Below are positions 2,736 through 30,984 of a stretch of 30,984 bases of DNA, piece after piece. The stretch's first letter is position 1. Each line of letters opens with the position of its first letter. Under the pieces are notes generated by a model that was not told the origin of the DNA, did not search any database, and saw only the letters and a list, made by a program, of their open reading frames with translations. The position numbers and the translations under genes were made by a program. This DNA is from a virus (taxonomy: Duplodnaviria > Caudoviricetes), in the IMG/VR virus record IMGVR_UViG_3300031673_000322, positions 1 to 30,984 of that record. One strand, given 5' to 3'.

Positions 2736-2869
2736 TAGAGAGTTGCAAATCCGTCTGGTCATTTTGCTGGAGAACAGCGATCGGAATGTTTGTTTGTTCT
2801 GTCGTGCTTTTAATTATGGGAATTGTATCAGAAATCTCAAAAATAAAAGGTTTAAGGAGAACGCTATAA
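2717..2869 (+). CDS. Possible 50-aa single-TM protein (not in ORF track)
   Basis: TTG start after GGGGG; MGSCRIIESCKSVWSFCWRTAIGMFVCSVVLLIMGIVSEISKIKGLRRTL; its TAA overlaps the next ATG (TAATG). Confidence 0.35.
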   Translation: MGSCRIIESCKSVWSFCWRTAIGMFVCSVVLLIMGIVSEISKIKGLRRTL

Positions 2870-3228: not shown

Positions 3229-3229
3229 A

Positions 3230-3427
3230 ATGAAATTTGAAATCATTGAACGATTACCGTCGCTGGGAGCAAGGATATGGGAGATCAAATGCCTGTCCTG
3301 TGGAGTCAAATTTAACTACGACAGCAACGAACCGCATAACTACGGTTTGGTTGTATGCACAGGGAAATGTCACAGTACTGAACGATGGAAAGCTGCAAAA
3401 GCAAGATACGATAAGGAGAAAGAATGA
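3230..3427 (+). CDS. Small zinc-ribbon protein
   Basis: ATG 3230 next to the upstream stop; CLSC...CTGKC; ATGA overlap with the next gene. Confidence 0.6.
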   Translation: MKFEIIERLPSLGARIWEIKCLSCGVKFNYDSNEPHNYGLVVCTGKCHSTERWKAAKARYDKEKE

Positions 3428-10280: not shown

Positions 10281-11414
10281 ATGGCAAATGAATATTTAAG
10301 CCGAGAAGATTACGAAGCACAAAATCCCGGTAAAAGCTACGAGGATTATCAGACCTCCAAAAATCAGAAGCAGCAGTATGATGCTTACGAAATGATGATG
10401 GGCGTTCCGCCGACCGAAGCTGTTGACTACGACGCTATGTACGGCTCGATGGCGGATATGTACGAGAAGATATCCCAGATGAATCTGGAGAAGTTTGAAT
10501 CGTATTGGCCTAAGTCAATCGAGGAAGGCATATCGGCGGGAGAGCAATTTGACACCGCTGGACGGGCCGCTGCGGGTCGTGCGTCAGCTTATAATATGCA
10601 ACTTGCCGACCAGATGAACAACTGGCTGGCAAACCTATCCAAATACGGCAATGCGTTCATGCGGGACGAGGCTACCAAATCCAATAAATGGATCATGGAT
10701 CAGGTCGGCGATGTCAACAAGTTCAACTCCGAAGAATTTTACACCGCCCTAGAGACCGCTATGCCCGGAGTAAGAGACACCGTCTCCGATTACAAGAAGA
10801 CCGTCGACCAGATGTTGTCTGGAGAGCTTCCAGACTCCGTCAAAAGCGAGATTGCCCAGACCGCTGCTGAGCGTGGTTTATCTACTGGAATGTATGGCCC
10901 AGCGTACGATAACGCCCAGTTGCGAGATCTTGGGCTTAGTCGCCTGCAGTATGTACAGGCTGGACAGGCTCAGATGGGGCAACTCTCGGGGATAGCAGGG
11001 CAGATGATGGCCCCTGTCGCCACGCCGAACATATACCAGAATGTCATGATGACGCCGACGCCTTACACCCCGCAACCGACATACGCACAGCCAAGTAATG
11101 TACCCGGAATTGCAGGCAACTATCTGTCGTCCATTATGGGCGGGACGATGATGCAGCCACAGGCAGGTATAGGAGCAGCGGTTCAGATGGGCGGAGTGCA
11201 GGCACAGATCAATCAGGCGAATACGCAGTTGCAATACTCGAAGGCAATGAGCGGTCTGAATTACGGGATGGATCAACAGGCACAGGCACAGAATTACGAG
11301 ATGTTTAAACAACAGATGAACGCACAGCAAGAGCAACAATGGTGGAATCTTGGAGGGAGCATACTTGGGGCAGCAGGCAAAGTAGGAGCGGCATTTGCAA
11401 TGCCGGGACTTTGA
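10281..11414 (+). CDS. Internal virion (DNA ejection) protein
   Basis: Q/M/A/G-rich helical protein ending in GGSILGAAGKVGAA; position between tail genes and the giant gene. Confidence 0.65.
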   Translation: MANEYLSREDYEAQNPGKSYEDYQTSKNQKQQYDAYEMMMGVPPTEAVDYDAMYGSMADMYEKISQMNLEKFESYWPKSIEEGISAGEQFDTAGRAAAGRASAYNMQLADQMNNWLANLSKYGNAFMRDEATKSNKWIMDQVGDVNKFNSEEFYTALETAMPGVRDTVSDYKKTVDQMLSGELPDSVKSEIAQTAAERGLSTGMYGPAYDNAQLRDLGLSRLQYVQAGQAQMGQLSGIAGQMMAPVATPNIYQNVMMTPTPYTPQPTYAQPSNVPGIAGNYLSSIMGGTMMQPQAGIGAAVQMGGVQAQINQANTQLQYSKAMSGLNYGMDQQAQAQNYEMFKQQMNAQQEQQWWNLGGSILGAAGKVGAAFAMPGL

Positions 11415-11524
11415 CAAAACAAGTAACAACTCAGCATATGCTGGCGGTTACAGCGGAAGATACGGGTCAGATAATTTAAATCCGTACAGCGAGACGAATC
11501 TAGGTTATTAAAAGGAGAATTTAA

Positions 11525-13060
11525 ATGGCATATCCAGTATATCAGAGGAGAGAGCAAGTACAATATCCTGACCCGAAGAACATGGTTGTCAACTGGTCGA
11601 GAGCTGCGGACAAGATTACTGAGGGGATCACCGAGGGGATCAGTCTGGGAATGAAGATAAAAGAAAGCAAGGAAAAATCTGCCATGAACCTTGCGAACCT
11701 CAAGTCCCTCGATGTAGCCACAAGGACAAAGCAGTTCGAGCTTCAAACAGCGGAGATGAGAAGGGCGGCCTTGTTGAGAATGGACGCTTTGACTGAAAAA
11801 AATTTAGATGCTCAAAATCAGATAAACTATAGTGCCTCCGCTATTTCAGCAGCACAGGCAAAAAGTGCCATGCAAGCAAAAATGAACGCTCAGGATCTTC
11901 AAGCACTTGAGATCAACACTCAATACCTAGACCCAATAGAAGATATTATTAATAACGCATCGGTAATGGAGGCACGGATAGCACAGGTTGGCGACCCGTC
12001 GGTGGCATATCAATATCTCAACGATGCAAAAAAGGAAGTAGACGAGTTACGGGGCAAGATAGGGATTAATATTTCTACTTTTGCCCAGCGACTTAAAAGA
12101 GGAAAGAACGACGCTCGGGCGGATCAAATATCAAAACTTGATCCAATTGTTCTGGAAGAGAGGTTTTTGGGGAAGGTAATGGTTCCTATATATACGAACG
12201 AGCTTAAAAAATACGACTATGGTTTATATGCCGGGGGAGACATTGGCGACATCGAAAAGCCGACTGCAATTACCACAACATCGGTAACTATGGTTCCGTG
12301 GACTGTTGCGAAGAATTACTGGCGTGGCAAAATGAGTACAGAAACTTTTGAGTCCGTAAGAGAGAGTGCGTCTAATCCTGAAAAGTTTGATAAACTAGCA
12401 AGGGAGCAGGGACTTGGTCATTTACTTCCCAAGGTTGTAACCCCAGCAGTAGGCGTGGACGGAGTTCCGCTCGATCTTAAATTTATGAAGCCAGCAGGCG
12501 AGAACGAAACAATATCGGAGCAGGCTAGAAGGGAACTGGTTCTGGCTGGCGAGAAAAGTCCCCTTAATGTAGCAACAGGATCAATAACTCAAAAGTTAAG
12601 CGAAAAATTAACTACTCACGAGTTCTCCGTTGTAAGTGGGCTTATAAATCCGGGTACGGGATTACTCTCCTATTCTCCTGCTATAGCAAGAGAGACGGGA
12701 AGTATTGTTAAATGGCTGGCAGAAAAAACTGGAATTGGGATAGAAGCGTCGTATAAATTGCATGATAAAATAAAAAACATACTTCCAAGGGCTGGAGAAG
12801 CGACAAAAGCGTTTAGGGGCAACCCCGCCAATGTAGAAGCGGAAAATAAATTCTGGGAAGGAAGGCGTAACGATTTGTATGCGGAATTACCCACCGCCTC
12901 CCCCGCCCGTAAGGCTGTTATTAATGAGGCGATCGGGCTTATCAATCAACAACATCTAAAGCCACAGACAGAATTTCCCGACGAAGCATCTGCAAGAGCT
13001 TATGGATGGAAGACTGGGGATACTATAACTATTAATGGTCGCCCGGGAACCTTAGACTAA
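11525..13060 (+). CDS. Internal virion (DNA ejection) protein
   Basis: AAGGAG RBS; GITEGISLG followed by coiled coil; C-terminal KTGDTITINGRPG motif. Confidence 0.6.
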   Translation: MAYPVYQRREQVQYPDPKNMVVNWSRAADKITEGITEGISLGMKIKESKEKSAMNLANLKSLDVATRTKQFELQTAEMRRAALLRMDALTEKNLDAQNQINYSASAISAAQAKSAMQAKMNAQDLQALEINTQYLDPIEDIINNASVMEARIAQVGDPSVAYQYLNDAKKEVDELRGKIGINISTFAQRLKRGKNDARADQISKLDPIVLEERFLGKVMVPIYTNELKKYDYGLYAGGDIGDIEKPTAITTTSVTMVPWTVAKNYWRGKMSTETFESVRESASNPEKFDKLAREQGLGHLLPKVVTPAVGVDGVPLDLKFMKPAGENETISEQARRELVLAGEKSPLNVATGSITQKLSEKLTTHEFSVVSGLINPGTGLLSYSPAIARETGSIVKWLAEKTGIGIEASYKLHDKIKNILPRAGEATKAFRGNPANVEAENKFWEGRRNDLYAELPTASPARKAVINEAIGLINQQHLKPQTEFPDEASARAYGWKTGDTITINGRPGTLD

Positions 13061-13061
13061 A

Positions 13062-16000
13062 ATGAGCATCACATTTCTTGATGAAGCACCATCTCAAAAT
13101 AAAGGCATTACTTTTCTGGACGAGAGTTCAGGGGTAAATCCTAACCCCAGCGTTCCCCTCACTCAAAAAACTCGTGACGCCGCTGGCGGTGGCAAGCCAG
13201 AAGATGGTGGATTCTTAAGCGACCTTTCCTTGGCAGGCAAGGTGATCGGGACTGGAGTCTACTCCGCCTTTGCCGATATGTTTCCGAAGATCCTCGCCGA
13301 GGCAATCCGTGCTGGTGACATCGACACAGACACCGCCAACACCGCCCTCGACCGCTGGATTCAGGAACAGAAGAAAGACCTCGAGCGTTGGGATCTCACG
13401 GAAGCCGAGAAGAACGACAAGTTGTTCGGGATTATCAAGGCACAGGATGTATTGTCTGGATTACAGAATCTCGGCTATTCCGCTGCGATTGGGGTAGCTG
13501 GTATGGTAGGCGGTGCTGCGATTGGATCTTTGGCGGGGCCAGCAGGAACGGTCGCAGGAACAATAGGCGGAATAGCAGGGGGGGTAGCTGGTGCGGGAGC
13601 CATTACCTTCCCTGTGATGTATAGAGCCACCAAGGATCAGTTTTTGGCTGATATGCTCGACAAGGCACAAAGAGAAAAGCCAGATCTCACCGACGCCGAA
13701 TGGAACGAGATGAAGGTTGCTCTGGAGTCCGACGCCCAGATGTACGCCTTTTGGGAGGCAGCCCCTGAGACGGTCGGCAATATGATCACCGCTGGTATCA
13801 TCAAGACCCCAATCGGCTCGATCCTGAAGCGTATCCCTGATATTAAGAACATCATCTCACGCACCCTCGCAACGGCTGGCACTAAGATCGCACTCGATAT
13901 TCCTGAGGAGTTGGCGACAGAAACTCTTACCCAGTATCAGCAGGCTAAGATCGAGGCAAAGCCTGAGGTCGGCTTGCGTGACAAGGCACCCACGATTAAG
14001 GAAGCGTTCACGGAGATTGCTCCTCAGGTTCTTGTGACCACGATTGCGGGGCTGGGAATGGGATCAGTTGCATCCAGAGCGTCCGAGGTCAGGCAGGAGA
14101 TCAACTTCCACCAACGGCTTAGTAAACTGGGATATGAACCCAAAGTAATCAGGGATCTCTCCTCGAAGATCGGCTTTGACGAAAGTGCGTTACGACTTGC
14201 TGAGCAAAACGCTCCTGTAGTAGCTGAGGCAATCAACAACAATATGTTACCCTCGACCATAGGAGAAATGAAAGGATCCCTGCTCCCGAGTCTTGTGCTG
14301 ACGACCTACAACAATGCCAGCGATAACGGGGCAAATCCTACCGCTGGCAGGGCTGCGGTCGAGGAACTCGTTCGGTCGGATAATTACAAACGCTTCCAGA
14401 AGCTTTTGAGACAGGCACGGGTAGATCAATCAGCAAAGAAAAAAGGAGGCAAAGATGCCGAAGGTACTAGAGGACAAGCTGAAGAGAGAGGCAAAGAAAC
14501 GAGGGTACGGGAAGAAGAAGGCAGGAGCGTATATTTACGGTACAATGCGGAAAACAGGCTGGAAGCCACCGAAGGAACAACATCAGACTTGGAGAGAGAA
14601 ACACGAGAAGCGAAGGAAGCGGAAGAATTAGCGGTGTCCTCGTCCATTCCAACCACTAAAGTTAAAAAAGGGCAACAGCCCATTACGACTAAGGGAATTA
14701 GGGCGGGGACACTTCCGCAAGTTGAGCCAGCGATAATGCAGGCGATACAAAAGGACGAGGCGGTTAACAGGATTGGTCTTGCGAAACCACCGCCCGTGCG
14801 ACCAATTGGTGAAGCCAAGTTTGCAACCACGGCTGAAGAGGCGACTCCCGCCGTCACTTCGTTTATTGAGAATATAGCAGGTCAGGGGCGTACCTTGCCT
14901 GTAAGTGAGAAAAGACCTGATGCCGACGCCGTCATCCTTACCGGGGTCAGGGTAGACCTTGCTCCAGACGGCAACAGGGTGCGGATTATTGACATGAAGG
15001 CGTTTGAACCCGGGCAAGGGGATCTCGTCAACCTGATGAGGATGCTGAGAGAAACCGCACGGGATACCAATGTTGATCTGGTGGTTACTCCTGCTGGAGA
15101 TAGTGCCGCACAGAAGAGTGCGGTGACTACATGGTATGGAGAGAACGGTTTTATACCCGAACCGAACGGCGATATGATTTTCACGCCAACAACAACCGAA
15201 CCACAGGAAGCCCAGAAGCAGGCGTTTATGGCTAGGGCAAAAAAGAGGATCAGGCTAGTCGCCGAGGCACGACCCGCCGCAAGGTCGTATGCATTCAGTC
15301 GATTTACGAATTCGCCTATGTCCGAAAAGGAGATTGAGGATGAGTCGGATAAGGCACTCGCCAAGGCAGTCGCAACCTTTGATATCGACAAGCCCAACTT
15401 TACGAGCTGGATGAAGACAGTTGTATCCCAGAGTCTCCAGAACTACATAGACAAAGTAAACAATGCAGCCAAGAGAGAGCCTTCGACAGTAAGTTTCCAG
15501 ACGCCAGTTCGGGTCGGTGCAACAGCGGAGGGCGAGGCGGTCGAGGTAAGTAAGGATGTATCCGAGATAGTAATGGAGAAGGGCAACCCGAGGGACATCG
15601 TAATGTCAAACGAGTTCTGGGAGGACTGGAAGAGGTTGCTGGGGGTTTGGGGACTTGAGGGCTTGTCAGAGACCAGAAGAAAGGTTATGGTTCGTCATTT
15701 AGAGGGGATGAATCACGCCACCATCGCAAGGGAACTTGGCTTCGATCAGACCAAGGTCGAGAGGGAATACGCTGGTGCCACGAAGCAGTTCAAAGAATTT
15801 CTTGATAATCATGGCTTCGTGGAAGCCGAGGCTCAGCAGGTATTGGCGGAGGTAAGAACGAGAGATGTATTTTATGGAGGATTAAAAGATGACACAGCAA
15901 GACCAACAGAACAACCAACCAAGCAGCCGAGTAAACGACCTAGTGAACAACCTAGCGGACGAACAGTCCCCCGGGGAGGACAGCCCGTCCAACGAGTCGG

Positions 16001-19000
16001 AGAGCCATCCGTCGCTGGTGAAACTGAAGAGCAAAGACGGCAAAACCGTAGTGACATTCTCCGTACGGGTTGGAACGCCTTACGAAGACTCAGACGCAGA
16101 GCAAGTGCAAAAGGCAATACAGGCTGGGATGCTCCCGTTGTAGACCTTATCCGTGGGGCAGAGCCAGTCTTCAAAGACCTGAGCAACAGGGCGGTAGAGA
16201 TTACCGACATATTTGCCCAAGAAGGATATACCGCCGTCTTCATCCATAACCCGCTGGTTAGGATATCCGCCGTGACGATGGCGGACGAGAAGGTTGTCGT
16301 CTTTAACCAACGGACAATCGACAGCTCCCATGAATTATTCCATGTTAAGATCAATAAGGGTGACGCAGGGGCGATGGCGATCCTCAAGTTTGTCAGGGAC
16401 GAGTGGGGTGTAAGCAATGATATGTTCACAAAATATCGCCTCGGGATGGCAAAGTCCCTGAGGACTGATATCGCCAATATTTCCCGAGAGAGGGTCGAGG
16501 AGGATATCGCAGCTGATTACTACCAAGCCACGATAGATAATAGGCTGTTCTCCCGCAACAATGTCGAGTTCTTTGGGATGGTGACCATCGACAGGCTGGC
16601 TGGATACCCAGAGACAACCCTCCCTCCGTACATTACGGAAGGGGAGACAGGTGAAATAAAAAGTAGTCCTCCTGCACCCAACGCCTTCCAAGATGGTAAG
16701 GACGCACAGGAGATAACTCGCAAATACGGAGATGCCACAGGATCCATTGAAGACATTAAATATGCCGTCAATAATAAATATACCATGAAATCATTCCCAA
16801 TACCCGTCGGACAACTCGCCACGCTCGATGAGCTGGGCAAGCCACTTTCAAATGTATTTAGTGCTGAGGCACAGATATTGAATCAACTCTTCCCTAATTT
16901 ATTCAAGGGAGACCCATCTAAACTTAGCATTATAGATTCCATTAATGTTATCCGAAAGGCTAAAGCAAACGGAGACCTTGCTGATTTTATGACAGGGAAA
17001 CGCATTTCTGATAATAGCATTATATCTTGGAGTGGTACTCAGGCGTCCAACACTATAAGAAAAGTAGAAGCCTCTTCGTTCAGAAGGATGAAACCAAACG
17101 AGCTTACTGGCACGGGCGGATTTTGGACAAAGAACATTAAGACTGGACTCTCCCTTGACTTTGCCTTGTCGTCCTGTGTTCCTACCGCCGCCTGTCCACG
17201 ATGCTACGCGGCGTCTGTCATTCAGTCCCACACATTTCAACAAGTCAATTATTTCAGAAACCTTCTCTGGGCGATCCACGATCCCAACGCTTTTGCTGAT
17301 GCTTCTTTGAAGGAATTAAAGGGTATACATTCGTCGATGACAAAAGAATCGTTAGCTTCCCTCGGAGGAATGCATATTAGGTTCAATGCATTCGGGGATA
17401 TAGGATTCAAAGAACAAGTGCAAGCCATGAACCGCATCATAGAAGGTATGCCACAGGATACAATCGCAGTTATCTTTAGTAGAAATCATACGGCACGATG
17501 GAAAGGGCAGGGTGCTTTGGATCAAATCGTTGTTCCAAAAGGAAAGAATGTAATCATAAATGCCTCGGTAGATCGCCAGCTCGTGCGTGAGTATGGCATT
17601 TCAGCACTCAAGAAACTTCCAAAGAATTGGAATATATCCTACCTTTATGTTGGCGAGGAAGATATTAATGTTTTGAGAAAACTTCTTAATGCCGATCTAT
17701 TCCCGATCATACACATCGACAAAGATGACTACAACAATGATAGCATACGGACATCTCTCAAAAAGGCTTATGTTGATACTGGGTATGAAGCAAATACTGA
17801 CACAGCCACCGTCTGCCCCTGCTCAGTAAGATTCCAGCCTCAGGCATCCTCGTGTGTGCAATGTCAAAAAGGTACGCACGGTTGCTTCCGTATGACAAGA
17901 GTGGCGGTCAATAATAAACTTGTGAGGGGTGCGGCGTTGGCGAGAGTAATGGTCTCGTTAAAGAAGACAAGAGACGAGTTGAAGGTCGATAAAAAAGGAA
18001 AACAAAAGACCAGCCCCATCAGGTTGTGGGATGGAGCCTTGGTAAAACCATTATCTATTATCGAAAGAAATCCCAAGAATATTGGTAGGGCAGAAAAATA
18101 TATAGAACACCTCGGAAGAACCGTCGAGCAACTACAGACCGAAAAACCACAGGCAGTTGCAAAAGCGACTGAGATCGTGAGCGGAAAGATTCAGCCGACG
18201 GTTAAGTTCGCCGTCGAGGAAAGTCAATTAGCCGACGGATCAATCATAATGGAACAGCCTAAGTTCGCTGTTACTTCTATGCCTATTGAGGAAGCGAAAA
18301 ACGACGAGTCTGTTTTCTGGCACGGTTCACCAAGCGGAGACCTTCGTGGATCAGCCAATGGTCTTCATATTGGAACATACACCGCAGCAAAGCAGGCTCT
18401 TGAAGCACGGATCGGGGTACCCGCAGTCGGCGAATGGGACGGAACAAGAGAATACGGAAAGACTCTCATCGCAGGGAATAAGACATTGAAAAAAATTGAT
18501 CCAAGAGGATACAACCAAACTGGATTTAATATTGAAGCACCAGAGGAAGATTATTATCCTACTGGAAAGGCAGAGTACAGCGACAGGACGCCCGTAGCGA
18601 TGACGGCAACGCCAAGCCTTAGGGCGTTTAGGATCACGGGCAAAATGAGCAATACTCCTCAGAACGCCTTGGAAGATTTTAAGGCAAACGCTGTGATGCG
18701 TGGGCAAATAACACGGGGAATGGCAAGGCGGGGATATTTTTACGAAAATGTTGGAGAGGATGAGGGATCTATTTCCGCAGTAATTCCCGCCTCTTCTCAT
18801 ATCGAAGAGATATCACTTACCGAAGAACCCAAGACCGCCGTCACCTCCACCGAGGATCAGGTGTATTACCACGGAACGCAAAGTGAGTTTGCCGAATTCA
18901 GCGATAAGATAACGAATATCAATGCCTATGGCAAGGGGTTCTACTTTACCACGGACAGACAGAGTGCCGAACGATATGCAAAGGCAGAAGAGGGTGGTCG

Positions 19001-22000
19001 CATACGGACAATCAGAGGAGAGCGTCCCAGAGTAATTTCTGCCCGTTTAGAAATCAAAAAGCCGTTCGTTATGGGGCAGGGACTCGTATCGAACGAAGAT
19101 CTCGCCACGATCAATTCCATTGCTGGCTGGGAACTCGGCCCATTTGACGAATCATATAAACCCACAGCAAATGCCGTCTGGTCGGAACTGGTTATAAACT
19201 CCACGGGAGACAAGGCGACTACAGCAAATCAGATTCTCCAGAAAGCAGGATTTGATGCCATTGTCGCCCCAAAAGAAACCATCGTATTCAAACGAGAGCG
19301 GATATTGGGTCAGCAAAGCGAAGATGTAAAATTCGCTACCCGTGCCGTCACCCCCGCCGAGGATCAGGCGTATATGGATGCGGTCGAGAAGGGTGACACA
19401 GCGACTGCCCAGAGGATGGTGGACGAGGCTGCGAAGAAGGCATGGTATGACTCCGAACCAGTTTATCACGGTAGTCCTCATGCTGGTTTCACTAAATTTG
19501 ATATCCCATCTAAAGGGTACAATAGTAATGTGCTTGGATCTTGGGATGTTGAGCGTAATGTAGCCTTTTTTACTCCAGATAAAAACGCAGCGGCTGGATA
19601 TCAAACCCAAGGAGGAAGAACTTCTGGAGAAACTAGAAAGTTTTATTTGGATGGTGAGTTCGCCGATCTTCGCAAAGGTATTAGCGAAGCAAGGTTGAAC
19701 ACGCTTGTTGATAACGGAGTTAACGAAAGGTTTTTATCTCAAAAAGGAGCAAGCTGGGAACTATTTGATAAAGAACAAGACCCAGATGGAACTATAGTTA
19801 AAGCATTTAAAAAGATGGGGTACGACGGGGTAATTATTCACGATACAGACGGAATAAATGATTTTGATTCTTATGCCGTCTTCTCCCCCTCCCGCATCAA
19901 GTCTGCCGACCCCGTCACCCGTGACGACGCTGGCAATGTAATCCCGCTGTCCAAAAGATTTGATCCGAAGAAAGAGGACATCAGGTACGCCGTTGAGGAC
20001 GATGCCATGGTGGACGAGATGGTTCCGCCTGAGGACATAGAATATACCACGGAAGAAGCCGAAGCTGAAGCCGAAGAGGAAGCCGCCCCCGTTTCCGAGC
20101 AAAAACCATCCCGCACGGCGTTGAACATCTCCCGGGACACGCAGGGGATACGGTCTGAAGATTTGAGGGCTGAATTTGTTGACATCTTCTACGAGGTCAA
20201 GCCTAATGTGGTGCTGATTGACGAGGTTATGTCGATACTTAGCACCGAGGGTATAAACAACGCCCGTGAATTGTACTTTAACAGAGGTTCGAGGATCACC
20301 GCCGACCAGAGGGTTCTCCTCGGCTTTATCCTGATGAAGACTCACGACGACGAGGCACAGGCGGTTAGGTCTACCAATCCAGAACTCTCCGACAAGCACT
20401 ACGACATGGCGGTGGATATAGGGCTGGAATTAGACGAGATTAACCGTGAGTACGGTCGTGCGGTTCAGGCGAATGCAATTATGTGGCGGAGCGTCCTTGC
20501 GACGCCAGCAGGGGCCGAGAGGTTCATGAGGAAGATTGTCAACCGCTACGCCGACTCGGTAATGCAACGGCAAGATGTCAAGGACTTGGTGTTGGGATAC
20601 CGTCGAATTACCGAAGGGGCCGCTGGCGAGGTGGTTAACGAGCCGTATATCCAACAGAGAATTGCCAATGTCCTCGAGATGATCTCCTCGGAGCGTGAAA
20701 AAGAGCTGACAGGATATCTCGCAAACGATGAAAAAATGAAGGTGGCACAGGAGACCCTCTCCTCGGAGGAGACTGAGATCCCTGCTGGAATATCACTTGC
20801 CACAGAGCAGTCAGAGGAGCTTACCCTTGACGAGAAGCTCGGGATGTTTGCCAGATACGGTATGGGCTTGATCATCAAGGGAAGGATCAGGACGCTCAAT
20901 GAGTTCTCAAAGGCAATGACCGAGAATATCCCAGATCCCAATTTGCCACAATATATGGGAAGAATCTACAACGACGCAAAGATCAGGGCGATGGATCGCA
21001 TAGCCCGTGGTGCAAGAAAGGCGACGAAGGCGGAAACTAAGAGAGAGAAAGCGGGCGGAAGGGATGTCGCCAGGCAGGTTAACGCCGTCCTGAGGGAATG
21101 GGCTACTGGCAGCCTGACCGCCGAGCCTCGAACAATCATCGACAGGCTTGCCCAGCTTGGCGTCTCCGAAGCCAGAGCGACAAAGCTAATGGACGCTACC
21201 CGTACACGCTTTGCTGAGAGGACTGTGAAACGCAGGGCGGATTTCCTCAAGAAGTTTACGACAGGCAGGAAGATCGATCCTGAGACACAGAAAGCATACA
21301 AGAATATTACAGAGCTGGCTAGCCGTGATGATCTAACGGACGAAAATGTCCGTGACGCCATCGTCACAGCATTTGATTTGCCCGACCCAAAGAGCGAGAG
21401 GATCAGAACCCGGGTAGCCAAACTAGCAAAGGCCATCAAAGACGCTCCCGAGGGATTTAAAAAAGACGATGAAGTCCGCAAGATGCTTGACTTTATCAGG
21501 ACGGAGATGCCCATAGCAAAAATGGATGTGGTGTGGTCGCTCTGGTATGCCAACATCCTCTCTGGATACCAGACCGCCGAGCGTAATATGGCTGGTAATT
21601 TATTCAACTTAATAAGCACACTCACGGCATCGATAATTGTCGAGCCACGGAACGCCCCTGTCGCCCTCTGGGGGTTCGTGAAGGGTGTAGGCTCCGGGAT
21701 GAGAGCTGCGTACAATGTAATGAAGACAGGGAGCTTCCCTATCCGTGACGAAAAGTACGAGCAGTCGCAGGTTCTTGAGTTCTTTCCGTTCCGTGGGATG
21801 ATGAAGGTGCTATCCAACTGGAAGTATGTGCTTCGCTCCCTGCAAGCAGTCGATATGCTGTTCTACAAGGCTGGGCAGGAAGCTCGTGCAATGATGCTAG
21901 CGGCGGACATCGCCCGAACGGAGAGCGAGACACCAGCGGATAAAGTATGGGAAAGGGCGGCTGAATTAACTGGGCTATCAAAAGATGTTCAGGCAAAGTA

Positions 22001-23303
22001 CAGGGCAATTGCGATAGCAGAAAAGTTTAGAGGCAACGAAATCGAACTGAGGGTTCAGGAACTTGCAGAGAGGAATCGCCCCGAGGAGATTACTACCGAG
22101 GCAACCGACTACGCCAGACGGGTGACATACAACTATCAGCCCGAGGGGCAACTTGGGATCCTCGCCAAAGGGATATCAGAAGTTTCCAAGTCTGTGCCGA
22201 TGCTGAGACTGGCGGTACCTTTCACGAGGATCGTTGCAAATGTCGGCAACACGACGATTGACTATACTCCTTGGGGCTTCGTACGGGCGATCCGTGGGAT
22301 GCGTGATCTAAAAGGCAAGCTGACTCCAATGACAGGTCATCGCCGTGCGACTACGATGGCAAAGGCTATGATGGGAACCATAGGAATGGTGTCCGCTTAT
22401 ATGGCAGACAAGATGCAGGGAGATGATGACGATGAGGACAAAAAGACCTTTGCGATATATGGCTCTGGGCCAAGTGAACTGAACAAGGCGTATCAACTGC
22501 GACAAACTGGATGGCGTCCTTACAGCTTCAAGTTTGGGAAACGGTATTTCGACTACCGCCTGACCCCGCTGGCGATCCCGTTTGCCATCATCGGGTCGAT
22601 CCGTGACGCCGAACGCTGGCACAAGCTGGATGAGAAGAGCAAATGGCAAAGAGCTTCGTATGCCACCCTGAAGTCTGGATCGGTCATATTTGATATGTCC
22701 TTCCTGTCTGGAATCAATCAGGTTATGACTATGTTGCAGTCAGGCACCTCGGAATCGAGCGGAAGGAAGTTGCAGAATTATCTGATCCGCAATGCGAGTT
22801 CGGCGGTACCAGCGTTGTTCAAGCAGATCGACAGGACATTCGATTCCCAGATCCACGACAACGCAACGATACAGGAAGCGTTGCTTCGGGAGTTGCCTGT
22901 TGCGTCCCGCCTTGTCAGACCGAAACTGAACCTGCTCGGCGAACCAGTCCCGCAACTGACTGGGCCACTCTCCATCTTTATCAGCGATAAGCAATCCGAT
23001 CCTGTATGGAGATTCATCGCCAACAAGGAAGTCTTTATCAGCAAGCCTCCGAAATCCACGACGGTCGGCAGGGGCAGAAGGAAGCGTATGATGACCGAAG
23101 AGGAGTACTACACTTACATACAGACATCAGGAAAGATGATCCGTAATATGCTGGAGAGAACCCACACCAAATTAGAGAAGATCAAGGATCGTGACAGGAT
23201 CGAGAAGATCGTGGACAAAGCCGTAATAAAAATACGATCCAAGGTGAAGCGAAAGATCTACATCGACAGCGTAAGAGCGAGGAGGAGATCAAGTGCCATC
23301 TGA
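13062..23303 (+). CDS. Giant polyvalent virion/ejection protein (3413 aa): Gly-rich TM, GNAT, sigma-70 r2+r4, HExxH peptidase, GP88/radical-SAM-like, 3 ADP-ribosyltransferase-like modules, LPD38-like C-terminus
   Basis: Motifs EPGQG..WYGENGF; FTSWMKTVV..IARELG; HELFH..EEDIAAD; CVPTAACPRCYA..IRFNAFGD; WHGSP, YHGT..GFYFT, YHGS..GYDGVI; PFTRIVAN. Confidence 0.85.
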   Translation: MSITFLDEAPSQNKGITFLDESSGVNPNPSVPLTQKTRDAAGGGKPEDGGFLSDLSLAGKVIGTGVYSAFADMFPKILAEAIRAGDIDTDTANTALDRWIQEQKKDLERWDLTEAEKNDKLFGIIKAQDVLSGLQNLGYSAAIGVAGMVGGAAIGSLAGPAGTVAGTIGGIAGGVAGAGAITFPVMYRATKDQFLADMLDKAQREKPDLTDAEWNEMKVALESDAQMYAFWEAAPETVGNMITAGIIKTPIGSILKRIPDIKNIISRTLATAGTKIALDIPEELATETLTQYQQAKIEAKPEVGLRDKAPTIKEAFTEIAPQVLVTTIAGLGMGSVASRASEVRQEINFHQRLSKLGYEPKVIRDLSSKIGFDESALRLAEQNAPVVAEAINNNMLPSTIGEMKGSLLPSLVLTTYNNASDNGANPTAGRAAVEELVRSDNYKRFQKLLRQARVDQSAKKKGGKDAEGTRGQAEERGKETRVREEEGRSVYLRYNAENRLEATEGTTSDLERETREAKEAEELAVSSSIPTTKVKKGQQPITTKGIRAGTLPQVEPAIMQAIQKDEAVNRIGLAKPPPVRPIGEAKFATTAEEATPAVTSFIENIAGQGRTLPVSEKRPDADAVILTGVRVDLAPDGNRVRIIDMKAFEPGQGDLVNLMRMLRETARDTNVDLVVTPAGDSAAQKSAVTTWYGENGFIPEPNGDMIFTPTTTEPQEAQKQAFMARAKKRIRLVAEARPAARSYAFSRFTNSPMSEKEIEDESDKALAKAVATFDIDKPNFTSWMKTVVSQSLQNYIDKVNNAAKREPSTVSFQTPVRVGATAEGEAVEVSKDVSEIVMEKGNPRDIVMSNEFWEDWKRLLGVWGLEGLSETRRKVMVRHLEGMNHATIARELGFDQTKVEREYAGATKQFKEFLDNHGFVEAEAQQVLAEVRTRDVFYGGLKDDTARPTEQPTKQPSKRPSEQPSGRTVPRGGQPVQRVGEPSVAGETEEQRRQNRSDILRTGWNALRRLRRRASAKGNTGWDAPVVDLIRGAEPVFKDLSNRAVEITDIFAQEGYTAVFIHNPLVRISAVTMADEKVVVFNQRTIDSSHELFHVKINKGDAGAMAILKFVRDEWGVSNDMFTKYRLGMAKSLRTDIANISRERVEEDIAADYYQATIDNRLFSRNNVEFFGMVTIDRLAGYPETTLPPYITEGETGEIKSSPPAPNAFQDGKDAQEITRKYGDATGSIEDIKYAVNNKYTMKSFPIPVGQLATLDELGKPLSNVFSAEAQILNQLFPNLFKGDPSKLSIIDSINVIRKAKANGDLADFMTGKRISDNSIISWSGTQASNTIRKVEASSFRRMKPNELTGTGGFWTKNIKTGLSLDFALSSCVPTAACPRCYAASVIQSHTFQQVNYFRNLLWAIHDPNAFADASLKELKGIHSSMTKESLASLGGMHIRFNAFGDIGFKEQVQAMNRIIEGMPQDTIAVIFSRNHTARWKGQGALDQIVVPKGKNVIINASVDRQLVREYGISALKKLPKNWNISYLYVGEEDINVLRKLLNADLFPIIHIDKDDYNNDSIRTSLKKAYVDTGYEANTDTATVCPCSVRFQPQASSCVQCQKGTHGCFRMTRVAVNNKLVRGAALARVMVSLKKTRDELKVDKKGKQKTSPIRLWDGALVKPLSIIERNPKNIGRAEKYIEHLGRTVEQLQTEKPQAVAKATEIVSGKIQPTVKFAVEESQLADGSIIMEQPKFAVTSMPIEEAKNDESVFWHGSPSGDLRGSANGLHIGTYTAAKQALEARIGVPAVGEWDGTREYGKTLIAGNKTLKKIDPRGYNQTGFNIEAPEEDYYPTGKAEYSDRTPVAMTATPSLRAFRITGKMSNTPQNALEDFKANAVMRGQITRGMARRGYFYENVGEDEGSISAVIPASSHIEEISLTEEPKTAVTSTEDQVYYHGTQSEFAEFSDKITNINAYGKGFYFTTDRQSAERYAKAEEGGRIRTIRGERPRVISARLEIKKPFVMGQGLVSNEDLATINSIAGWELGPFDESYKPTANAVWSELVINSTGDKATTANQILQKAGFDAIVAPKETIVFKRERILGQQSEDVKFATRAVTPAEDQAYMDAVEKGDTATAQRMVDEAAKKAWYDSEPVYHGSPHAGFTKFDIPSKGYNSNVLGSWDVERNVAFFTPDKNAAAGYQTQGGRTSGETRKFYLDGEFADLRKGISEARLNTLVDNGVNERFLSQKGASWELFDKEQDPDGTIVKAFKKMGYDGVIIHDTDGINDFDSYAVFSPSRIKSADPVTRDDAGNVIPLSKRFDPKKEDIRYAVEDDAMVDEMVPPEDIEYTTEEAEAEAEEEAAPVSEQKPSRTALNISRDTQGIRSEDLRAEFVDIFYEVKPNVVLIDEVMSILSTEGINNARELYFNRGSRITADQRVLLGFILMKTHDDEAQAVRSTNPELSDKHYDMAVDIGLELDEINREYGRAVQANAIMWRSVLATPAGAERFMRKIVNRYADSVMQRQDVKDLVLGYRRITEGAAGEVVNEPYIQQRIANVLEMISSEREKELTGYLANDEKMKVAQETLSSEETEIPAGISLATEQSEELTLDEKLGMFARYGMGLIIKGRIRTLNEFSKAMTENIPDPNLPQYMGRIYNDAKIRAMDRIARGARKATKAETKREKAGGRDVARQVNAVLREWATGSLTAEPRTIIDRLAQLGVSEARATKLMDATRTRFAERTVKRRADFLKKFTTGRKIDPETQKAYKNITELASRDDLTDENVRDAIVTAFDLPDPKSERIRTRVAKLAKAIKDAPEGFKKDDEVRKMLDFIRTEMPIAKMDVVWSLWYANILSGYQTAERNMAGNLFNLISTLTASIIVEPRNAPVALWGFVKGVGSGMRAAYNVMKTGSFPIRDEKYEQSQVLEFFPFRGMMKVLSNWKYVLRSLQAVDMLFYKAGQEARAMMLAADIARTESETPADKVWERAAELTGLSKDVQAKYRAIAIAEKFRGNEIELRVQELAERNRPEEITTEATDYARRVTYNYQPEGQLGILAKGISEVSKSVPMLRLAVPFTRIVANVGNTTIDYTPWGFVRAIRGMRDLKGKLTPMTGHRRATTMAKAMMGTIGMVSAYMADKMQGDDDDEDKKTFAIYGSGPSELNKAYQLRQTGWRPYSFKFGKRYFDYRLTPLAIPFAIIGSIRDAERWHKLDEKSKWQRASYATLKSGSVIFDMSFLSGINQVMTMLQSGTSESSGRKLQNYLIRNASSAVPALFKQIDRTFDSQIHDNATIQEALLRELPVASRLVRPKLNLLGEPVPQLTGPLSIFISDKQSDPVWRFIANKEVFISKPPKSTTVGRGRRKRMMTEEEYYTYIQTSGKMIRNMLERTHTKLEKIKDRDRIEKIVDKAVIKIRSKVKRKIYIDSVRARRRSSAI
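14455..14631 (+). CDS. Nested +1-frame 58-aa basic protein inside the giant gene
   Basis: AGGAGG RBS 5 nt before ATG; MPKVLEDKLKREAKKRGYGKKKAGAYIYGTMRKTGWKPPKEQHQTWREKHEKRRKRKN. Confidence 0.65.
   Translation: MPKVLEDKLKREAKKRGYGKKKAGAYIYGTMRKTGWKPPKEQHQTWREKHEKRRKRKN
15889..16143 (+). CDS. Nested +1-frame 84-aa acidic protein inside the giant gene
   Basis: GGAGG at 15876-15880, 8 nt before ATG; overlaps a low-complexity linker of the giant protein. Confidence 0.5.
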   Translation: MTQQDQQNNQPSSRVNDLVNNLADEQSPGEDSPSNESESHPSLVKLKSKDGKTVVTFSVRVGTPYEDSDAEQVQKAIQAGMLPL

Positions 23304-23451
23304 TAAGAAAGAGATAAGGCAAGCCCTCGAGCGAGTGGCGAAGGCGAACGGCACCGATGTGTACACGATGGTGCGGAAGATGATGCTCAAGTCGCTGAAG
23401 GATTTGGAGCCGACGGCAACCCCGCCCAAAACGCCCCCGCCAGCTAAATAG
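23293..23451 (+). CDS. 52-aa ribbon-helix-helix-like protein (not in ORF track)
   Basis: GGAGGAG RBS, GTG start; KEIRQALERVAKANGTDVYTMVRKMML resembles the RHH helix pair. Confidence 0.55.
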   Translation: MPSDKKEIRQALERVAKANGTDVYTMVRKMMLKSLKDLEPTATPPKTPPPAK

Positions 23452-23518: not shown

Positions 23519-23546
23519 TTGACTTCGCATCTTTTTGTGATACATT
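23519..23546 (+). promoter_or_regulatory. Sigma70-type promoter
   Basis: TTGACT-N16-TACATT with extended -10 TG; AT-rich upstream; lies in the intergenic gap before the operon. Confidence 0.6.
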
Positions 23547-23567
23547 TTGCAACAAAGGAGAAAACCT

Positions 23568-23726
23568 ATGGTAAAAAAAGTAACCAACAGGACGGAGAGA
23601 ATAGTAAGGGATAAACTTATTTACGCAAGCAATCTGACGGGGCTATCAACAAGAGCGTTGCGTCGCCTGCTCGTGTTACGGTTTCTTACCCAGCTCGTCG
23701 GCGAATTAAACGGGAGGGCGAGGTGA
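23568..23726 (+). CDS. 52-aa basic, possibly DNA-binding protein (not in ORF track)
   Basis: AAGGAG RBS; MVKKVTNRTERIVRDKLIYASNLTGLSTRALRRLLVLRF...; GTGA overlap with the next gene. Confidence 0.65.
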   Translation: MVKKVTNRTERIVRDKLIYASNLTGLSTRALRRLLVLRFLTQLVGELNGRAR

Positions 23727-27878: not shown

Positions 27879-28048
27879 AGGCAAGCAAGGATTACATCAA
27901 GGGACTGAAGGACGGCGTCAGGATGTTTGCGTGGTGGAAAGACGGCAAGCAGGAGGTGGGCAGTTGCGGAACCACCCTCAATGGAGCTTTAGCAGAGATC
28001 GATAAAGAATACGAACCAATGGATAAACAAGATGATAAACCTGATTAA
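27875..28048 (+). CDS. Small hypothetical phage protein
   Basis: ATGA overlap start; FAWWKDGKQEVGSCGTTL. Confidence 0.6.
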   Translation: MKASKDYIKGLKDGVRMFAWWKDGKQEVGSCGTTLNGALAEIDKEYEPMDKQDDKPD

Positions 28049-28898
28049 ATTATTGTGTGCAAAAATCTTTGGTGGTCATAACGAACGGCTGGATGGGGCG
28101 ACTCTGTTCTCTGCTGAGTACGGCACAGAGGCACAGTACCTCGATGTATTGAAGCTATATCGAGGCAAGCCAGTCATCAGGATGCCGTTCATCGGCTCTG
28201 AGTACAACGCCTTCAAGAGGTCTGCATGGCTGGCGGATCAAGGTGGCATTACGGTTGTGGCCCAGTTGGATTTTGGAACCAACGACTCGATGATGGACAG
28301 GCTATCGATCATCAAGAAGGATTTTACCTTCATAAAGCATATAGAGCTTTTCAACGAACTTCCTCATATGGTGTACCCGGGAGAGCCGATTAAGTCGCTT
28401 GAGGAACTTATCGTGAAGACCAATCGATACTCGGACTGGATACACCAGAACATAAACGGCGTGAAGGTCATAACGATGGCACCGTACAACAGTATCGACG
28501 AACGGGCGTTCCCGCCTTGGGGTGGCGTAACCAACACCCGCATCCTGAAAGACCTCATCCTGTACACCACGGCTGACATATCTGCGGTTCATATCTACGG
28601 CGACAGCCTTGGCAAACAGATGGAGATGGTCAAGCTTGCCAACAGTATTAAAGAGTGGAACAGGGAAGCCAGTCATAAGAAAAAGATTTGGATCACAGAA
28701 ATTGGGGAGGCTGGATGGAAGTACCATGTCGAATACTACCACAGGATGGTCAGGCTTGCCGTGAATGTTTTAAAGCCTGATAAAGTTATCTGGTACAGGC
28801 AGACGATCTCGAATATTCTGGCACCCGACGCTCTGTTCGCTCTCGAGAGCAGGAAAGAATCGGTACGATCTCCATTGTGGAACGAACTGAAAGGATGA
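28032..28898 (+). CDS. Glycoside hydrolase, clan GH-A TIM barrel
   Basis: IELFNEL (acid/base), AVHIY, IWITEIG (nucleophile). Confidence 0.75.
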   Translation: MINLIKLLCAKIFGGHNERLDGATLFSAEYGTEAQYLDVLKLYRGKPVIRMPFIGSEYNAFKRSAWLADQGGITVVAQLDFGTNDSMMDRLSIIKKDFTFIKHIELFNELPHMVYPGEPIKSLEELIVKTNRYSDWIHQNINGVKVITMAPYNSIDERAFPPWGGVTNTRILKDLILYTTADISAVHIYGDSLGKQMEMVKLANSIKEWNREASHKKKIWITEIGEAGWKYHVEYYHRMVRLAVNVLKPDKVIWYRQTISNILAPDALFALESRKESVRSPLWNELKG

Positions 28899-28902
28899 AC
28901 CG

Positions 28903-29145
28903 ATGATAGAAAAAATCAAAGACCCATGTGACGGTGACCCTGACTTTGAACTCGCAGAACCAACGACGCCACTCCAGCAATCTCAACGCAATGTGCGGGA
29001 CTACTTTGCTGGGCAGATTATGTCTGGCGTAGTATCAAACCCTGATAAAAAATTCACAGACGAGTCAAAACAAGATGTGATTGAAGAGGTGTTCGATACC
29101 GCTGATATGATGCTGAAAGAAAGCGTACGGCGGGGTGGCTGGTAG
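28903..29145 (+). CDS. Small phage protein (RDYFAGQ...ADxML type)
   Basis: VRDYFAGQIMSG..ADMML; AAGGA RBS. Confidence 0.7.
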   Translation: MIEKIKDPCDGDPDFELAEPTTPLQQSQRNVRDYFAGQIMSGVVSNPDKKFTDESKQDVIEEVFDTADMMLKESVRRGGW

Positions 29146-29184
29146 ATTTTGCCTTCATTTTGCCTTCACTACATTTTGCCTTCA
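29146..29184. repeat. Three copies of ATTTTGCCTTCA
   Basis: Exact copies at 29146, 29157 and 29173. Confidence 0.85.
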
Positions 29185-29208
29185 TGACGGCCCCGGGTAG
29201 ATCGGGGC

Positions 29209-29249
29209 AAAAAAAAAGGCGGACAGGCACCCTGTGGCACCTGTCCACC
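29209..29249 (-). terminator. Intrinsic terminator of the minus-strand operon
   Basis: GGTGGACAGG...CCTGTCCGCC stem followed by T9 on the minus strand, 15 nt after the stop at 29265. Confidence 0.85.
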
Positions 29250-29264
29250 AGTCCTCGTGCAGAA

Positions 29265-29726
29265 CTACACATCGTCGAGCAACTCAGGATACTTCTCAGC
29301 AAGTCCTTTGACGCTTGCCGTGAGCTGAATATACTTCTCAGCCTCACCAGACCTGATCGCTTCGATTACCTTATTTTCCATAAGCGACAGCAGGACAAAG
29401 GACACCTTGTCGATATCAATGCTAGTTGCCCTCGCCACTCCCATGGCAAACTGAACGGAAGGCACATTAACGCCTTGCACCTTAGCCTTGGTCAGGACTC
29501 GCAGGATACCTCGAATGAGCTTGTTGACAGTCTTCACAAAGTCTACTACCTCCTGCTCGTTCGGGAAAGATTTCCCGCCCATCGGAATAACACTTGTGAC
29601 GCCCATCTCCTCGCTATCTATCTTTACCTGCCAGATCGCATCCAGCGTCCCGTCTTTTTGCTTTTCGACCTGAGCTACGCCGATGTTATCGCCTTCCTCG
29701 TTATCTATCTTGATCGTCTTCTTCAT
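29265..29726 (-). CDS. Hypothetical protein
   Basis: GAGGGGGTGA RBS; 153 aa; followed by the terminator. Confidence 0.75.
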   Translation of the reverse strand: MKKTIKIDNEEGDNIGVAQVEKQKDGTLDAIWQVKIDSEEMGVTSVIPMGGKSFPNEQEVVDFVKTVNKLIRGILRVLTKAKVQGVNVPSVQFAMGVARATSIDIDKVSFVLLSLMENKVIEAIRSGEAEKYIQLTASVKGLAEKYPELLDDV

Positions 29727-29809
29727 TACTTCACCCCCTCTCTGTTTTTGTTTCGTACCTTTCTAAAAATGGGATCGGAATTCTTGGCTTCCGATCGAGC
29801 CAGTCGTAC

Positions 29810-30064
29810 TCACTTAGGGAGGAGACGGAAATCCCGTCTGACAGTCGTGTAGTTGTACTCCTCAACGACATGGGAGGGAACCTCCACGACCTTGCGTTTC
29901 AGTACGCTCCCGTCGCTCAGGGGAACAGAACGCTTGCGTCCCATCTCCTTCAACACGCTTGCCTTGAGTTCCTCAGCCCGTCTACTCAGGCGGTTGGCGT
30001 GTCCCAGCATCCTCTTGTAGCTGTGGTATAATCTTTCGACCCTCTTCTCTTTCACTTTTATCAC
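29810..30064 (-). CDS. Hypothetical basic protein
   Basis: AAGGGG RBS, GTG start; 84 aa. Confidence 0.7.
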   Translation of the reverse strand: MIKVKEKRVERLYHSYKRMLGHANRLSRRAEELKASVLKEMGRKRSVPLSDGSVLKRKVVEVPSHVVEEYNYTTVRRDFRLLPK

Positions 30065-30082
30065 CCCCTTCTATTCTTGACT

Positions 30083-30298
30083 TCAGTATCCGCTAATATT
30101 GTTATTGTCCCTGCACTCTATGATGACATAAGGATACTCTGAGAGCTGGTAGTGATCTAAGAATTTAATCGCCTCCTTGTGAGAATTAAATCTGGAAGCA
30201 TAATTAATCTTCTTTGTTAATCCTCCGTCACCAAAGATACAGTACTGATCGTAACGGGGATCCGCTGAGACCTTGACGATATAATGTTTCATGCCCAT
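30083..30298 (-). CDS. Hypothetical protein
   Basis: GGAGGTGA RBS; A..F.S..EA motif. Confidence 0.65.
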   Translation of the reverse strand: MGMKHYIVKVSADPRYDQYCIFGDGGLTKKINYASRFNSHKEAIKFLDHYQLSEYPYVIIECRDNNNISGY

Positions 30299-30327
30299 CA
30301 GTCACCTCCATTTTATTTTGAATGATC

Positions 30328-30705
30328 TTACCGCATTGCTTTTCGGTTGCACTTCTCGCAGTACTCGTCGTAGACATCGTCCGTCAGCTCCTTACTGCCA
30401 AAGTCGATGACCTCCTGCTTGAAGTACTCACCGCATTCGGAACACTTCCGCCTGATCGTCTTCATCTTTATTTTTCTGTTTACTCTCTCGTATTCCTCGA
30501 TGATCGTCTTGACCAACGCCTCTACGACCTCGCAGTTGTCGGCGAGCTTCAGCTCGCTCATTGCCTGCACCGCAACTTTATGGTCATCGTACACTATCGC
30601 CATATCAATATTGGCGTCGAACATTCCTACGCCCTTTTTGGGATGGCTGTACAGGTATTCTTCGCTACTGATCAACCTTATAATGTATCCAAGTTGATTC
30701 ATCAC
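30328..30705 (-). CDS. Hypothetical protein with C-terminal zinc finger
   Basis: GGAGGTGA RBS; CSEC...CEKC. Confidence 0.7.
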   Translation of the reverse strand: MMNQLGYIIRLISSEEYLYSHPKKGVGMFDANIDMAIVYDDHKVAVQAMSELKLADNCEVVEALVKTIIEEYERVNRKIKMKTIRRKCSECGEYFKQEVIDFGSKELTDDVYDEYCEKCNRKAMR

Positions 30706-30789
30706 TCACCTCCAGTTAATGTTTCTGACTCTATCGTTTCGAGATTGAAATTGTGCCAGCTTTTATTCAGAGCTGGCGAACTGGTCTCG

Positions 30790-30978
30790 TCAGGAGCAAG
30801 CCGAATTTATTTCGACCCTGACTTTCTTCGCTACCTTCTTGTCGTACTCTTCGATCTTGTTGCGGATGACTTCCTGAAAGTCAATCTCATCGATGGCATC
30901 CACAATGTTTTCGCAGTTCGTTTCAGTCACCTGCTTGGCATCGACTTCAATCGATATCATTATTCTCTGTAAGATCAT
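30790..30978 (-). CDS. Small acidic hypothetical protein (start may lie outside the window)
   Basis: Frame is open to the window edge; co-oriented with neighbours. Confidence 0.5.
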   Translation of the reverse strand: MILQRIMISIEVDAKQVTETNCENIVDAIDEIDFQEVIRNKIEEYDKKVAKKVRVEINSACS

Positions 30979-30984
30979 CGTTCG

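Follow-up and report, generated by a model that had tools for sequence, protein, structure and literature searches.

Phage polyvalent proteins are giant late proteins that join a zincin metallopeptidase (MPTase), one or more ART-PolyVal (ADP-ribosyltransferase) domains and a GNAT domain; Iyer 2017 (PMC5512222) predicts that they are packaged and injected, and that the MPTase processes them. Processing into units was proposed there, apparently without naming a cleavage site. Among proteins that invite comparison, phi24B gp47 (bioRxiv 10.64898/2026.04.10.717836) and JC1 gp69 (PMC9144972) are reported from virions by mass spectrometry, and the polyvalent gene of PTXU04 (gp25) is reported to be required for infection (PMC11879866). 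The window considered here, the whole stretch of 30,984 bases that was analyzed, comes from a virus of the Caudoviricetes (IMG/VR record IMGVR_UViG_3300031673_000322) and encodes a giant protein, P0001, which belongs to this known class. Its modules are bordered by a short recurrent peptide, the ‘seam’, and about 100 other giants carry a seam variant of their own. This motif is the best clue to how P0001 works; it did not figure in the earlier, sequence-only reading of the window. The account favored here, with a probability of about 0.45, is that P0001 is a packaged, ejected polyprotein whose seams a phage zincin cuts, in the simplest case that of P0001 itself.

A recurrent peptide at module borders

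The open reading frame (ORF) of 3413 amino acids (aa) called by the sequence-only reading is open over its full length, and is laid out as follows.

13062..23303 (+): P0001, giant polyvalent/ejection-type protein, 3413 aa; ORF open in translation table 11
13062..14096 (+): N-terminal scaffold, with a Gly/Ala-rich, weakly hydrophobic pair at aa 140-186 (homology, hydropathy)
14817..14828 (+): seam copy 1, KFAT, aa 586, before the GNAT module
14844..15206 (+): minimal GNAT-fold module, acetyl-CoA loop degenerate (single-sequence model, Foldseek, homologues)
15246..15800 (+): ECF (extracytoplasmic function)-type sigma-70 module, regions 2 and 4 (hidden Markov model libraries, language-model search)
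16179..16586 (+): zincin MPTase, HELFH at 16329 (profile from relatives)
16758..16769 (+): seam copy 2, KYAV, aa 1233, start of the GP88 module
16770..18203 (+): GP88-family module, Cys clusters 17175-17204 and 17814-17885 (Pfam, ESM Atlas, BFVD)
18204..18272 (+): seam copies 3 and 4, KFAV at 18204 and 18261, aa 1715 and 1734
18294..18821 (+): ‘ART1’, unnamed conserved phage domain, probably ART-fold (viral homologues, model, BFVD)
18831..18842 (+): degenerate seam KTAV, aa 1924, between ART1 and ART2
18849..19316 (+): ART2, ART-PolyVal (Pfam E 3.8e-12, 47.6 bits, cut-off 31.2)
19329..19340 (+): seam copy 5, KFAT, aa 2090
19344..19982 (+): ART3, ART-PolyVal with helical N-cap and conserved C-cap (Pfam E 4.5e-12)
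19983..19994 (+): seam copy 6, RYAV, aa 2308, then an acidic linker
20199..23300 (+): C-terminal ejection-type scaffold (phrog_6651; 64 relatives; homologues in the gp16-like slot)

Six exact copies of [KR][FY]A[VT] occur in P0001, where 0.39 are expected, and none of 20,000 shuffles reaches six. Each of them marks the edge of a module, and the scaffold has none; an exact copy is lacking between GNAT, sigma and zincin. The 20 other ORFs of the window (5,669 aa) hold none, and none of 191 other giants holds more than two. The pattern was defined after inspection of P0001, a point that counts against it, and the idea was therefore tested on other proteins; within P0001, the four copies that took no part in the definition give P(>=4)=0.00055.

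The 191 fetched proteins include 94 with both ART3-like caps, 83 of them with an N-side junction other than a duplicated C-cap. In these 83, the N-side junction matches the protein's own C-side motif at 15.4, against 8.1 with the motifs of other proteins. After thinning to 62 proteins at 45% module identity, which does not fully remove shared scaffold ancestry, the values are 14.8 and 7.8±0.45 (permuted, with a maximum of 9.8 in 20,000); in neither set does any of 20,000 permutations exceed 9.9. A motif could be parsed in 113 of 192 non-redundant giants (of 250): outside the ART caps these hold 220 copies of their own motif, as against 101 with the motifs of other proteins, with a peak in the middle deciles, the cargo zone. 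Neighboring genes are seam-poor, with 16 copies in 141,824 aa of other same-strand ORFs and 72 extra copies in 174,884 aa of the giants themselves (73 of 99 non-redundant loci). The distance from seam to zincin is not fixed (80-260 aa in 31 of 74). A generic [KR][FY][SA] count, tried as a seam detector, was abandoned, as it gave no signal in most scaffold relatives; anchoring on the ART caps revealed the seams.

Modules common to different scaffolds take the seam variant of the host protein. The GP88 module begins with KYAV in P0001, LFSS in P0066 and NFSL in P0067; ART3 cores 60-70% identical to that of P0001 are flanked by RYSP-type seams in four of seven close relatives; the closest scaffold relatives of P0001 have IRVS, IRMS or VRLS seams and a different zincin. 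The seam is conserved at the protein level in P0001, whose copies share 22 of 54 codons (19.5 expected, the level of chance), and in L001, where 60 of 60 residues are identical and 17 of 60 codons (16.0 expected). The Caulobacter phage Jess A supplies a cultured case: gp39 (L199:7150-13269) is annotated as a ‘lysis protein’, yet is polyvalent, with an ART and a zincin, and by eye the ART has L-[TA]-Q-G-E on both flanks.

It is very probable that the seam works as a recognition site, and on balance the seams seem to be sites of cleavage. At slightly less than even odds, the reader would be a polyvalent-type zincin such as the HELFH domain. HExxH or HExxxH is present in 96 of the 113 giants with a parsable seam, within the zincin profile match in 75 and elsewhere in 21. 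A complex prediction of the zincin (alignment A2, with Zn) and a 40-residue stretch with two seams scored 0.00, which is evidence neither way.

An ejection-type scaffold with exchangeable cargo

P0001 is a phage polyvalent protein (Iyer 2017): several biochemically unrelated domains, the criterion of the class, lie in one large polypeptide, and the hallmark domains are present as two ART-PolyVal matches above cut-off and a zincin (by its own profile). That the giant is of ejection type, as the sequence-only reading held, is supported by a match of the C-terminal part to the internal virion protein family phrog_6651 (E 2.8e-12) and by cargo-free homologues, 1121 and 1303 aa long, that fill the last ejection slot in podovirus MW202801 (31%, E 8e-68) and in the autographivirus Roseobacter phage CRP-227 (21%, E 3e-6). 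Both occupy the gp16-like slot of complete podovirus genomes; that of MW202801 has terminase and portal. The LPD38 match to P0001 is below cut-off (E 0.057), and the scaffold has no sequence match in the PDB.

A search with aa 2700-3400 yielded 64 scaffold relatives of 1877-5380 aa among 6832 candidates. They have the C-terminal part in common (aa ~2380-3400 in the closer ones), and five of the 64 also the N-terminal ~300 aa, at about 50% identity. Of the Gly-rich transmembrane N-terminus that had been proposed, the Gly-rich part stands; the transmembrane part comes down to a marginal Gly/Ala-rich hydrophobic pair (aa 140-186), with Kyte-Doolittle 19-residue peaks of 1.62 and 1.53. GNAT, sigma, the zincin type of P0001, GP88 and ART1 have no detectable counterpart in any of the 64; ART2/ART3-like modules do occur in some. 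The impression that the combination is unusual is supported: it was not found in any of the 64. The middles of the relatives (34 of 64 scanned) carry other cargo: DdrB-ParB, zeta toxin, kinase, 2H, PRTase and LPD3. As judged from these alignments, the architecture is shown to be that of a scaffold with swappable cargo.

Single-sequence scans of viral contigs with GP88 and with the scaffold found no relative; three genome contigs with the scaffold, from unrelated assemblies, are only 30-31% identical. A phage-like contig in a Verrucomicrobia assembly encodes a 3973-aa giant on the same scaffold (L196:203-12124; 31%), a faint hint of host range only. In the scaffold relative P0031, the 2H phosphoesterase weakly matches the anti-CBASS protein Acb1 (E 5.5e-4).

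The cargo modules

The GNAT-like unit (aa ~595-715) was modeled from the single sequence at a confidence (pLDDT) of ~60-70; outside it, the model of aa 590-1640 is poor (mean 38). Foldseek places AcrVA5 (6iuf) first, at E 4e-3 and 16% identity, in a list dominated by GNATs, and five homologues were found, in large proteins. The acetyl-CoA loop of GNATs has the motif G-x-G-x-G. The GNAT fold claimed from sequence is thus supported weakly, at that best E-value; the loop is degenerate, its third Gly being Leu, and the P0001 module may be impaired.

The predicted sigma factor is firmer: regions 2 and 4 follow in order at aa ~729-913, at ECF length. TIGR02937 matches at E 3.4e-9 over profile positions 3-164 of 165, phrog_1740 at E 1.6e-9, and the Pfam families for region 2 and r4_2 at E 1.1e-3 and 1.8e-4; the ESM Atlas gives 0.97, with ten of the ten best matches in agreement. 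There is no close homologue among 1.84 billion representatives or in the PDB. A sigma also stands immediately ahead of the zincin in a second giant, P0159, which is built on a different scaffold; it aligns with that of P0001 in region 4 only. A Pro/Thr/Gln repeat linker (15894-15959) follows the sigma of P0001.

The HExxH reported at 16329 is HELFH (aa 1090) and comes after a three-stranded sheet, as the MPTase fold requires. The domain scores 14.5 bits against a profile built from relatives, where the best of 300 shuffles reaches 5.3; the family profile matches IrrE, a site-specific protease (E 1.2e-4), and ArdC (E 0.08), the nearest solved relatives.

All eight cysteines of P0001 lie at aa 1372-1381 and 1585-1608, in the domain where Cys clusters had been noted. 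The label given to that domain, GP88/radical-SAM-like, holds in its first half: GP88 (PF17338) scores 26.5 bits when the segment is searched alone and 21.2 within the full-length protein (cut-off 24.4), backed by the ESM Atlas and by a GP88 match in BFVD (E 4.7e-4), the top BFVD match being a 1122-residue piece of another large GP88-containing protein. The module is common to only two of 1582 giant candidates, P0066 and P0067, both on other scaffolds. The radical-SAM half was not borne out: the spacing at aa 1372-1381 is Cx5Cx2C, not the CxxxCxxC of radical SAM clusters; Cx5Cx2C-like variants exist in some radical SAM enzymes. The model has beta/alpha repeats, but its Cys loops stay below pLDDT 50; BFVD lists a single, weak radical SAM match (E 0.11). 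When the GP88+ART1 model was compared with the PDB by Foldseek and by VIA, nothing matched clearly; a helical hairpin filled the VIA list, so that these searches decide neither the radical-SAM nor the ART fold. Two other polyvalent giants, P0082 and P0170, do have a radical SAM domain (Pfam PF04055 in both; NCBIfam radical SAM also matches P0082).

Three ART-like domains with HG[S/T] had been placed at 18321, 18870 and 19467 (aa 1754, 1937 and 2136). The positions are right, and the last two are ART-PolyVal; ART1 is not matched by that family, nor by any other in Pfam or PHROG, and has no sequence match in the PDB. To judge from its homologues, ART1 is an unnamed, widespread phage family: there are 64 viral homologues (L132-L195) at 43-62% identity, as solo ORFs of ~190 aa or fused in large proteins (by stop-to-stop length, the ORF is shorter than 400 aa for 31 of them and longer than 1000 aa for 23), and four of them sit inside the same caps as ART3. 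His1754, His1769, Glu1899 and Asp1900 are invariant. The model (pLDDT about 90) has an ART-like strand order, BFVD gives a weak match to PolyVal ART (probability 0.99, E 0.04) and hhalign aligns 11 columns only; ART1 is probably an ART-fold domain. ART3 has 1937 giant homologues, up to 70% identical. By eye, the triad positions of ART2 hold His, Tyr and Glu, as against the H-Y-D triad of ART-PolyVal; across 42 homologous segments, the strand-5 residue varies. An acidic linker (19995-20096) follows ART3 and seam copy 6. No substrate can be assigned to GP88 or ART1.

How P0001 might act

P0001 would, in all likelihood, be made late, packaged, and then ejected through a channel that the scaffold would help to form. 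We infer packaging from the phrog_6651 match, the gp16-like slot and the presence of analogues in virions: a good inference, rather than a result. A phage zincin would then cut the seams and free the cargo modules; GNAT, sigma and zincin would be released as one piece (aa ~587-1233), because no exact seam separates them. Somewhat more probably than not, the sigma would bind the core RNA polymerase of the host ahead of all phage protein synthesis, to redirect or sequester it, and ART2 and ART3 would ADP-ribosylate host targets or consume NAD+, in the manner of T4 Alt. A broader form of this proposal is rather doubtful. It would make genuine bacterial polyproteins of the polyvalent proteins, with a co-evolving cleavage code private to each: the zincin reads the seam of its own protein, and incoming modules must adopt that seam; P0001 would so release a sigma and a new ART family before phage gene expression.

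Several observations, beside the post hoc choice of the P0001 pattern, weigh against cutting by the giant's own zincin or against active cargo. Sixteen of the 113 giants are without HExxH or HExxxH and keep their seams (33 copies vs 13.4 expected), at the same enrichment as the 75 with an intact zincin (152 vs 60.3). A catalytic zincin in cis behind every seam was therefore rejected; it is not needed everywhere. Several complete giants without HExxH show a degenerate zincin helix and have no zincin gene within about 10 kb. The virion RNA polymerase of phage N4 (N4 vRNAP) is described as packaged unprocessed despite its MPTase (Iyer 2017, PMC5512222). In P0001 itself, the third zincin ligand is an Asp aligned to the Glu of the profile, with a Glu one residue before; the loop glycine replaced by Leu is retained in five of five GNAT homologues; the sigma scores 36.5 bits, below the curated TIGR02937 cut-off of 42.9; and the ART3 triad positions, by eye, hold His, Phe and Ser/Asp. 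The head genes, with terminase and portal, fall outside the 31-kb contig. As to what the sigma might serve, a host-type promoter-like site stands ahead of the early block, downstream of the giant gene, and the window, which is an incomplete genome, holds no repeated non-coding motif as a candidate promoter. The sigma may therefore serve promoters outside the contig, or act as a decoy. Among the giants with seams, L048, L066, L044 and L074 form a clade of complete proteins with a degenerate zincin helix and 3-7 GYSI/NYSI copies.

One alternative supposes that the seam is never cut: as a docking or loading tag, it would bind a zincin-fold groove, the scaffold, or a portal or core partner for packaging and threading, and the chain would stay tethered. 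Seams that persist where the zincin is degenerate or undetectable would be explained, the concerted retuning of seams requires only a cognate reader, and the MPTase region of N4 vRNAP is given as needed for encapsidation but uncleaved (Iyer 2017, PMC5512222). This is unlikely all the same, given the HExxH or HExxxH of those 96 giants, the placing of seams at the edges of modules, so that cutting there would release domains whole, and the need for a tethered sigma and tethered ARTs to reach separate targets. If cutting is granted, the protease might act in trans; head-maturation proteases are known in T4 and phiKZ, and a phage enzyme of that kind, or a host protease, would account for seams kept without a zincin in cis. 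Such a protease usually has several substrates, whereas the motif is depleted in neighboring genes and absent from the other ORFs of the window (the head genes being outside the contig); a trans protease is distinctly unlikely.

It is also conceivable, though very unlikely, that seams play no part in the protein and are recombination scars or gene-conversion tracts of a gene that swaps cassettes, much of the cargo being a decaying passenger. Synonymous codon sharing is indeed above chance in L004 (29/52 vs 13.9) and L007 (25/41 vs 12.7), more mildly so in L003 and L006, and a 30-nucleotide repeat, 90% identical, lies at the starts of ART2 and ART3 (18837 and 19344). These also weigh against the polyprotein account, and the excess in L004 and L007, with the repeat, means that DNA copying contributes too; the degenerate GNAT loop and the non-canonical ART3 triad would suit decay. 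Against scars stand the full residue identity of the L001 copies at chance-level codon identity, with P0001 likewise at chance, an ORF that runs uninterrupted for 10 kb, and the 46-70% identity to distant copies that GP88, ART1 and ART3 have kept. Selection on the seam peptide and DNA copying both occur. The decoy sigma, finally, is compatible with any of these readings: its target would be the host's core RNA polymerase or an anti-sigma factor, and it would direct no transcription from phage promoters. The host-type promoter, with no repeated alternative in the window, and the lack of a close homologue speak for it; regions 2 and 4, which keep their order and the ECF spacing along the full profile, speak against it, as does the fact that only 31 kb of the genome is in view, and it appears somewhat unlikely. 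The polyprotein cut by a phage zincin is the account retained.

Flanking genes

Along the contig, tail and lysis genes (tailspike, holin, HNH, tail fiber) come first, then the giant gene, then cell-wall hydrolase, RecT and exonuclease. Two further features belong to these flanks.

10281..13060 (+): two genes in the usual slots of smaller ejection proteins (order only, as in MW202801 and CRP-227; no naming match)
23519..23546 (+): host-type sigma-70 promoter-like site ahead of the RecT/exonuclease block (TTGACT-16-TACATT with TG; consensus match only)

The giant had been described as lying directly after tail and ejection genes. This is right for the tail fiber (phrog_4492, E 4.8e-52) and for the tailspike and holin, confirmed by Pfam and PHROG library matches; the four genes that lie between the tail fiber and the giant, at 6286, 9242, 10281 and 11525 (nozzle, adaptor and two small ejection genes), have no significant match in the profile libraries that names them, and their labels therefore rest on gene order. 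The putative nozzle has no sequence match in the PDB and does not align with the stabilization protein of MW202801.

Two small ORFs flank the promoter-like site, at 23293-23451 (52 aa, overlapping the stop codon of the giant gene) and 23547-23726 (59 aa); by eye they resemble small DNA-binding regulators, with no Pfam match. ORFs of ~280 aa at 28032-28898 (weak Pfam Glyco_hydro_cc match, E 5.4e-4) and 3424-4269 (no match) have the look of glycoside-hydrolase barrels. A sign change in GC skew near 29-30 kb (window 29000-30984) suggests that genes turn to the minus strand near the contig end.

Comparison with known systems

The class is already known; the virion-fused sigma and the retuned seam code are apparently its new elements, and P0001 is one good example of them, not a unique one. 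Neither element was found in print in listings of the open-licence literature (in the available part of PMC9503650, the word ‘sigma’ is absent). The main text of Iyer 2017 (PMC5512222) has no occurrence of ‘sigma’, ‘radical’ or ‘linker’ and apparently names no recurrent seam; its supplements may list such domains. Beyond that set, P0001 has GP88, a complete sigma of ECF type, an ART-like family that has no name yet, and the retuned seam code. MPTase self-processing has been proposed since 2017 without a testable site; with the seam, exact positions can be predicted for about a hundred proteins and for one cultured candidate, Jess A gp39, so that processing becomes a matter for peptide cleavage and N-terminomics.

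Like the large ejection proteins of the T7 gp16 and P22 type, and like phi24B gp47, JC1 gp69 and PTXU04 gp25, P0001 is the product of the last and largest gene of a tail/ejection block. The cargo is completely different. AcrVA5 acetylates Cas12a; its place as best structural match of the GNAT, at 16% identity, a weak E-value and a low-confidence model, is no pointer to a Cas target. Head proteases are known to cut virion cargo at a short repeated motif. The maturation directed by T4 gp21 and phiKZ gp175 thus resembles the proposal for P0001 in its short-motif cutting, and differs in that here the motif is confined to one protein, varies from protein to protein and has a candidate reader in cis. 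If the proposal is true, a zincin family with naturally varied sequence specificity would offer useful reagents.

T4 Alt and N4 vRNAP are packaged in the head and, once inside the cell, supply transcription or take it over (Iyer 2017, PMC5512222). Alt is an R-S-E ART and N4 vRNAP a whole polymerase, whereas P0001 would use a promoter-recognition subunit of its own for the host enzyme, together with His-type ARTs. A sigma delivered in the virion would, if this is so, add a third means of taking control of transcription as the phage enters, next to virion polymerases and T4 Alt.

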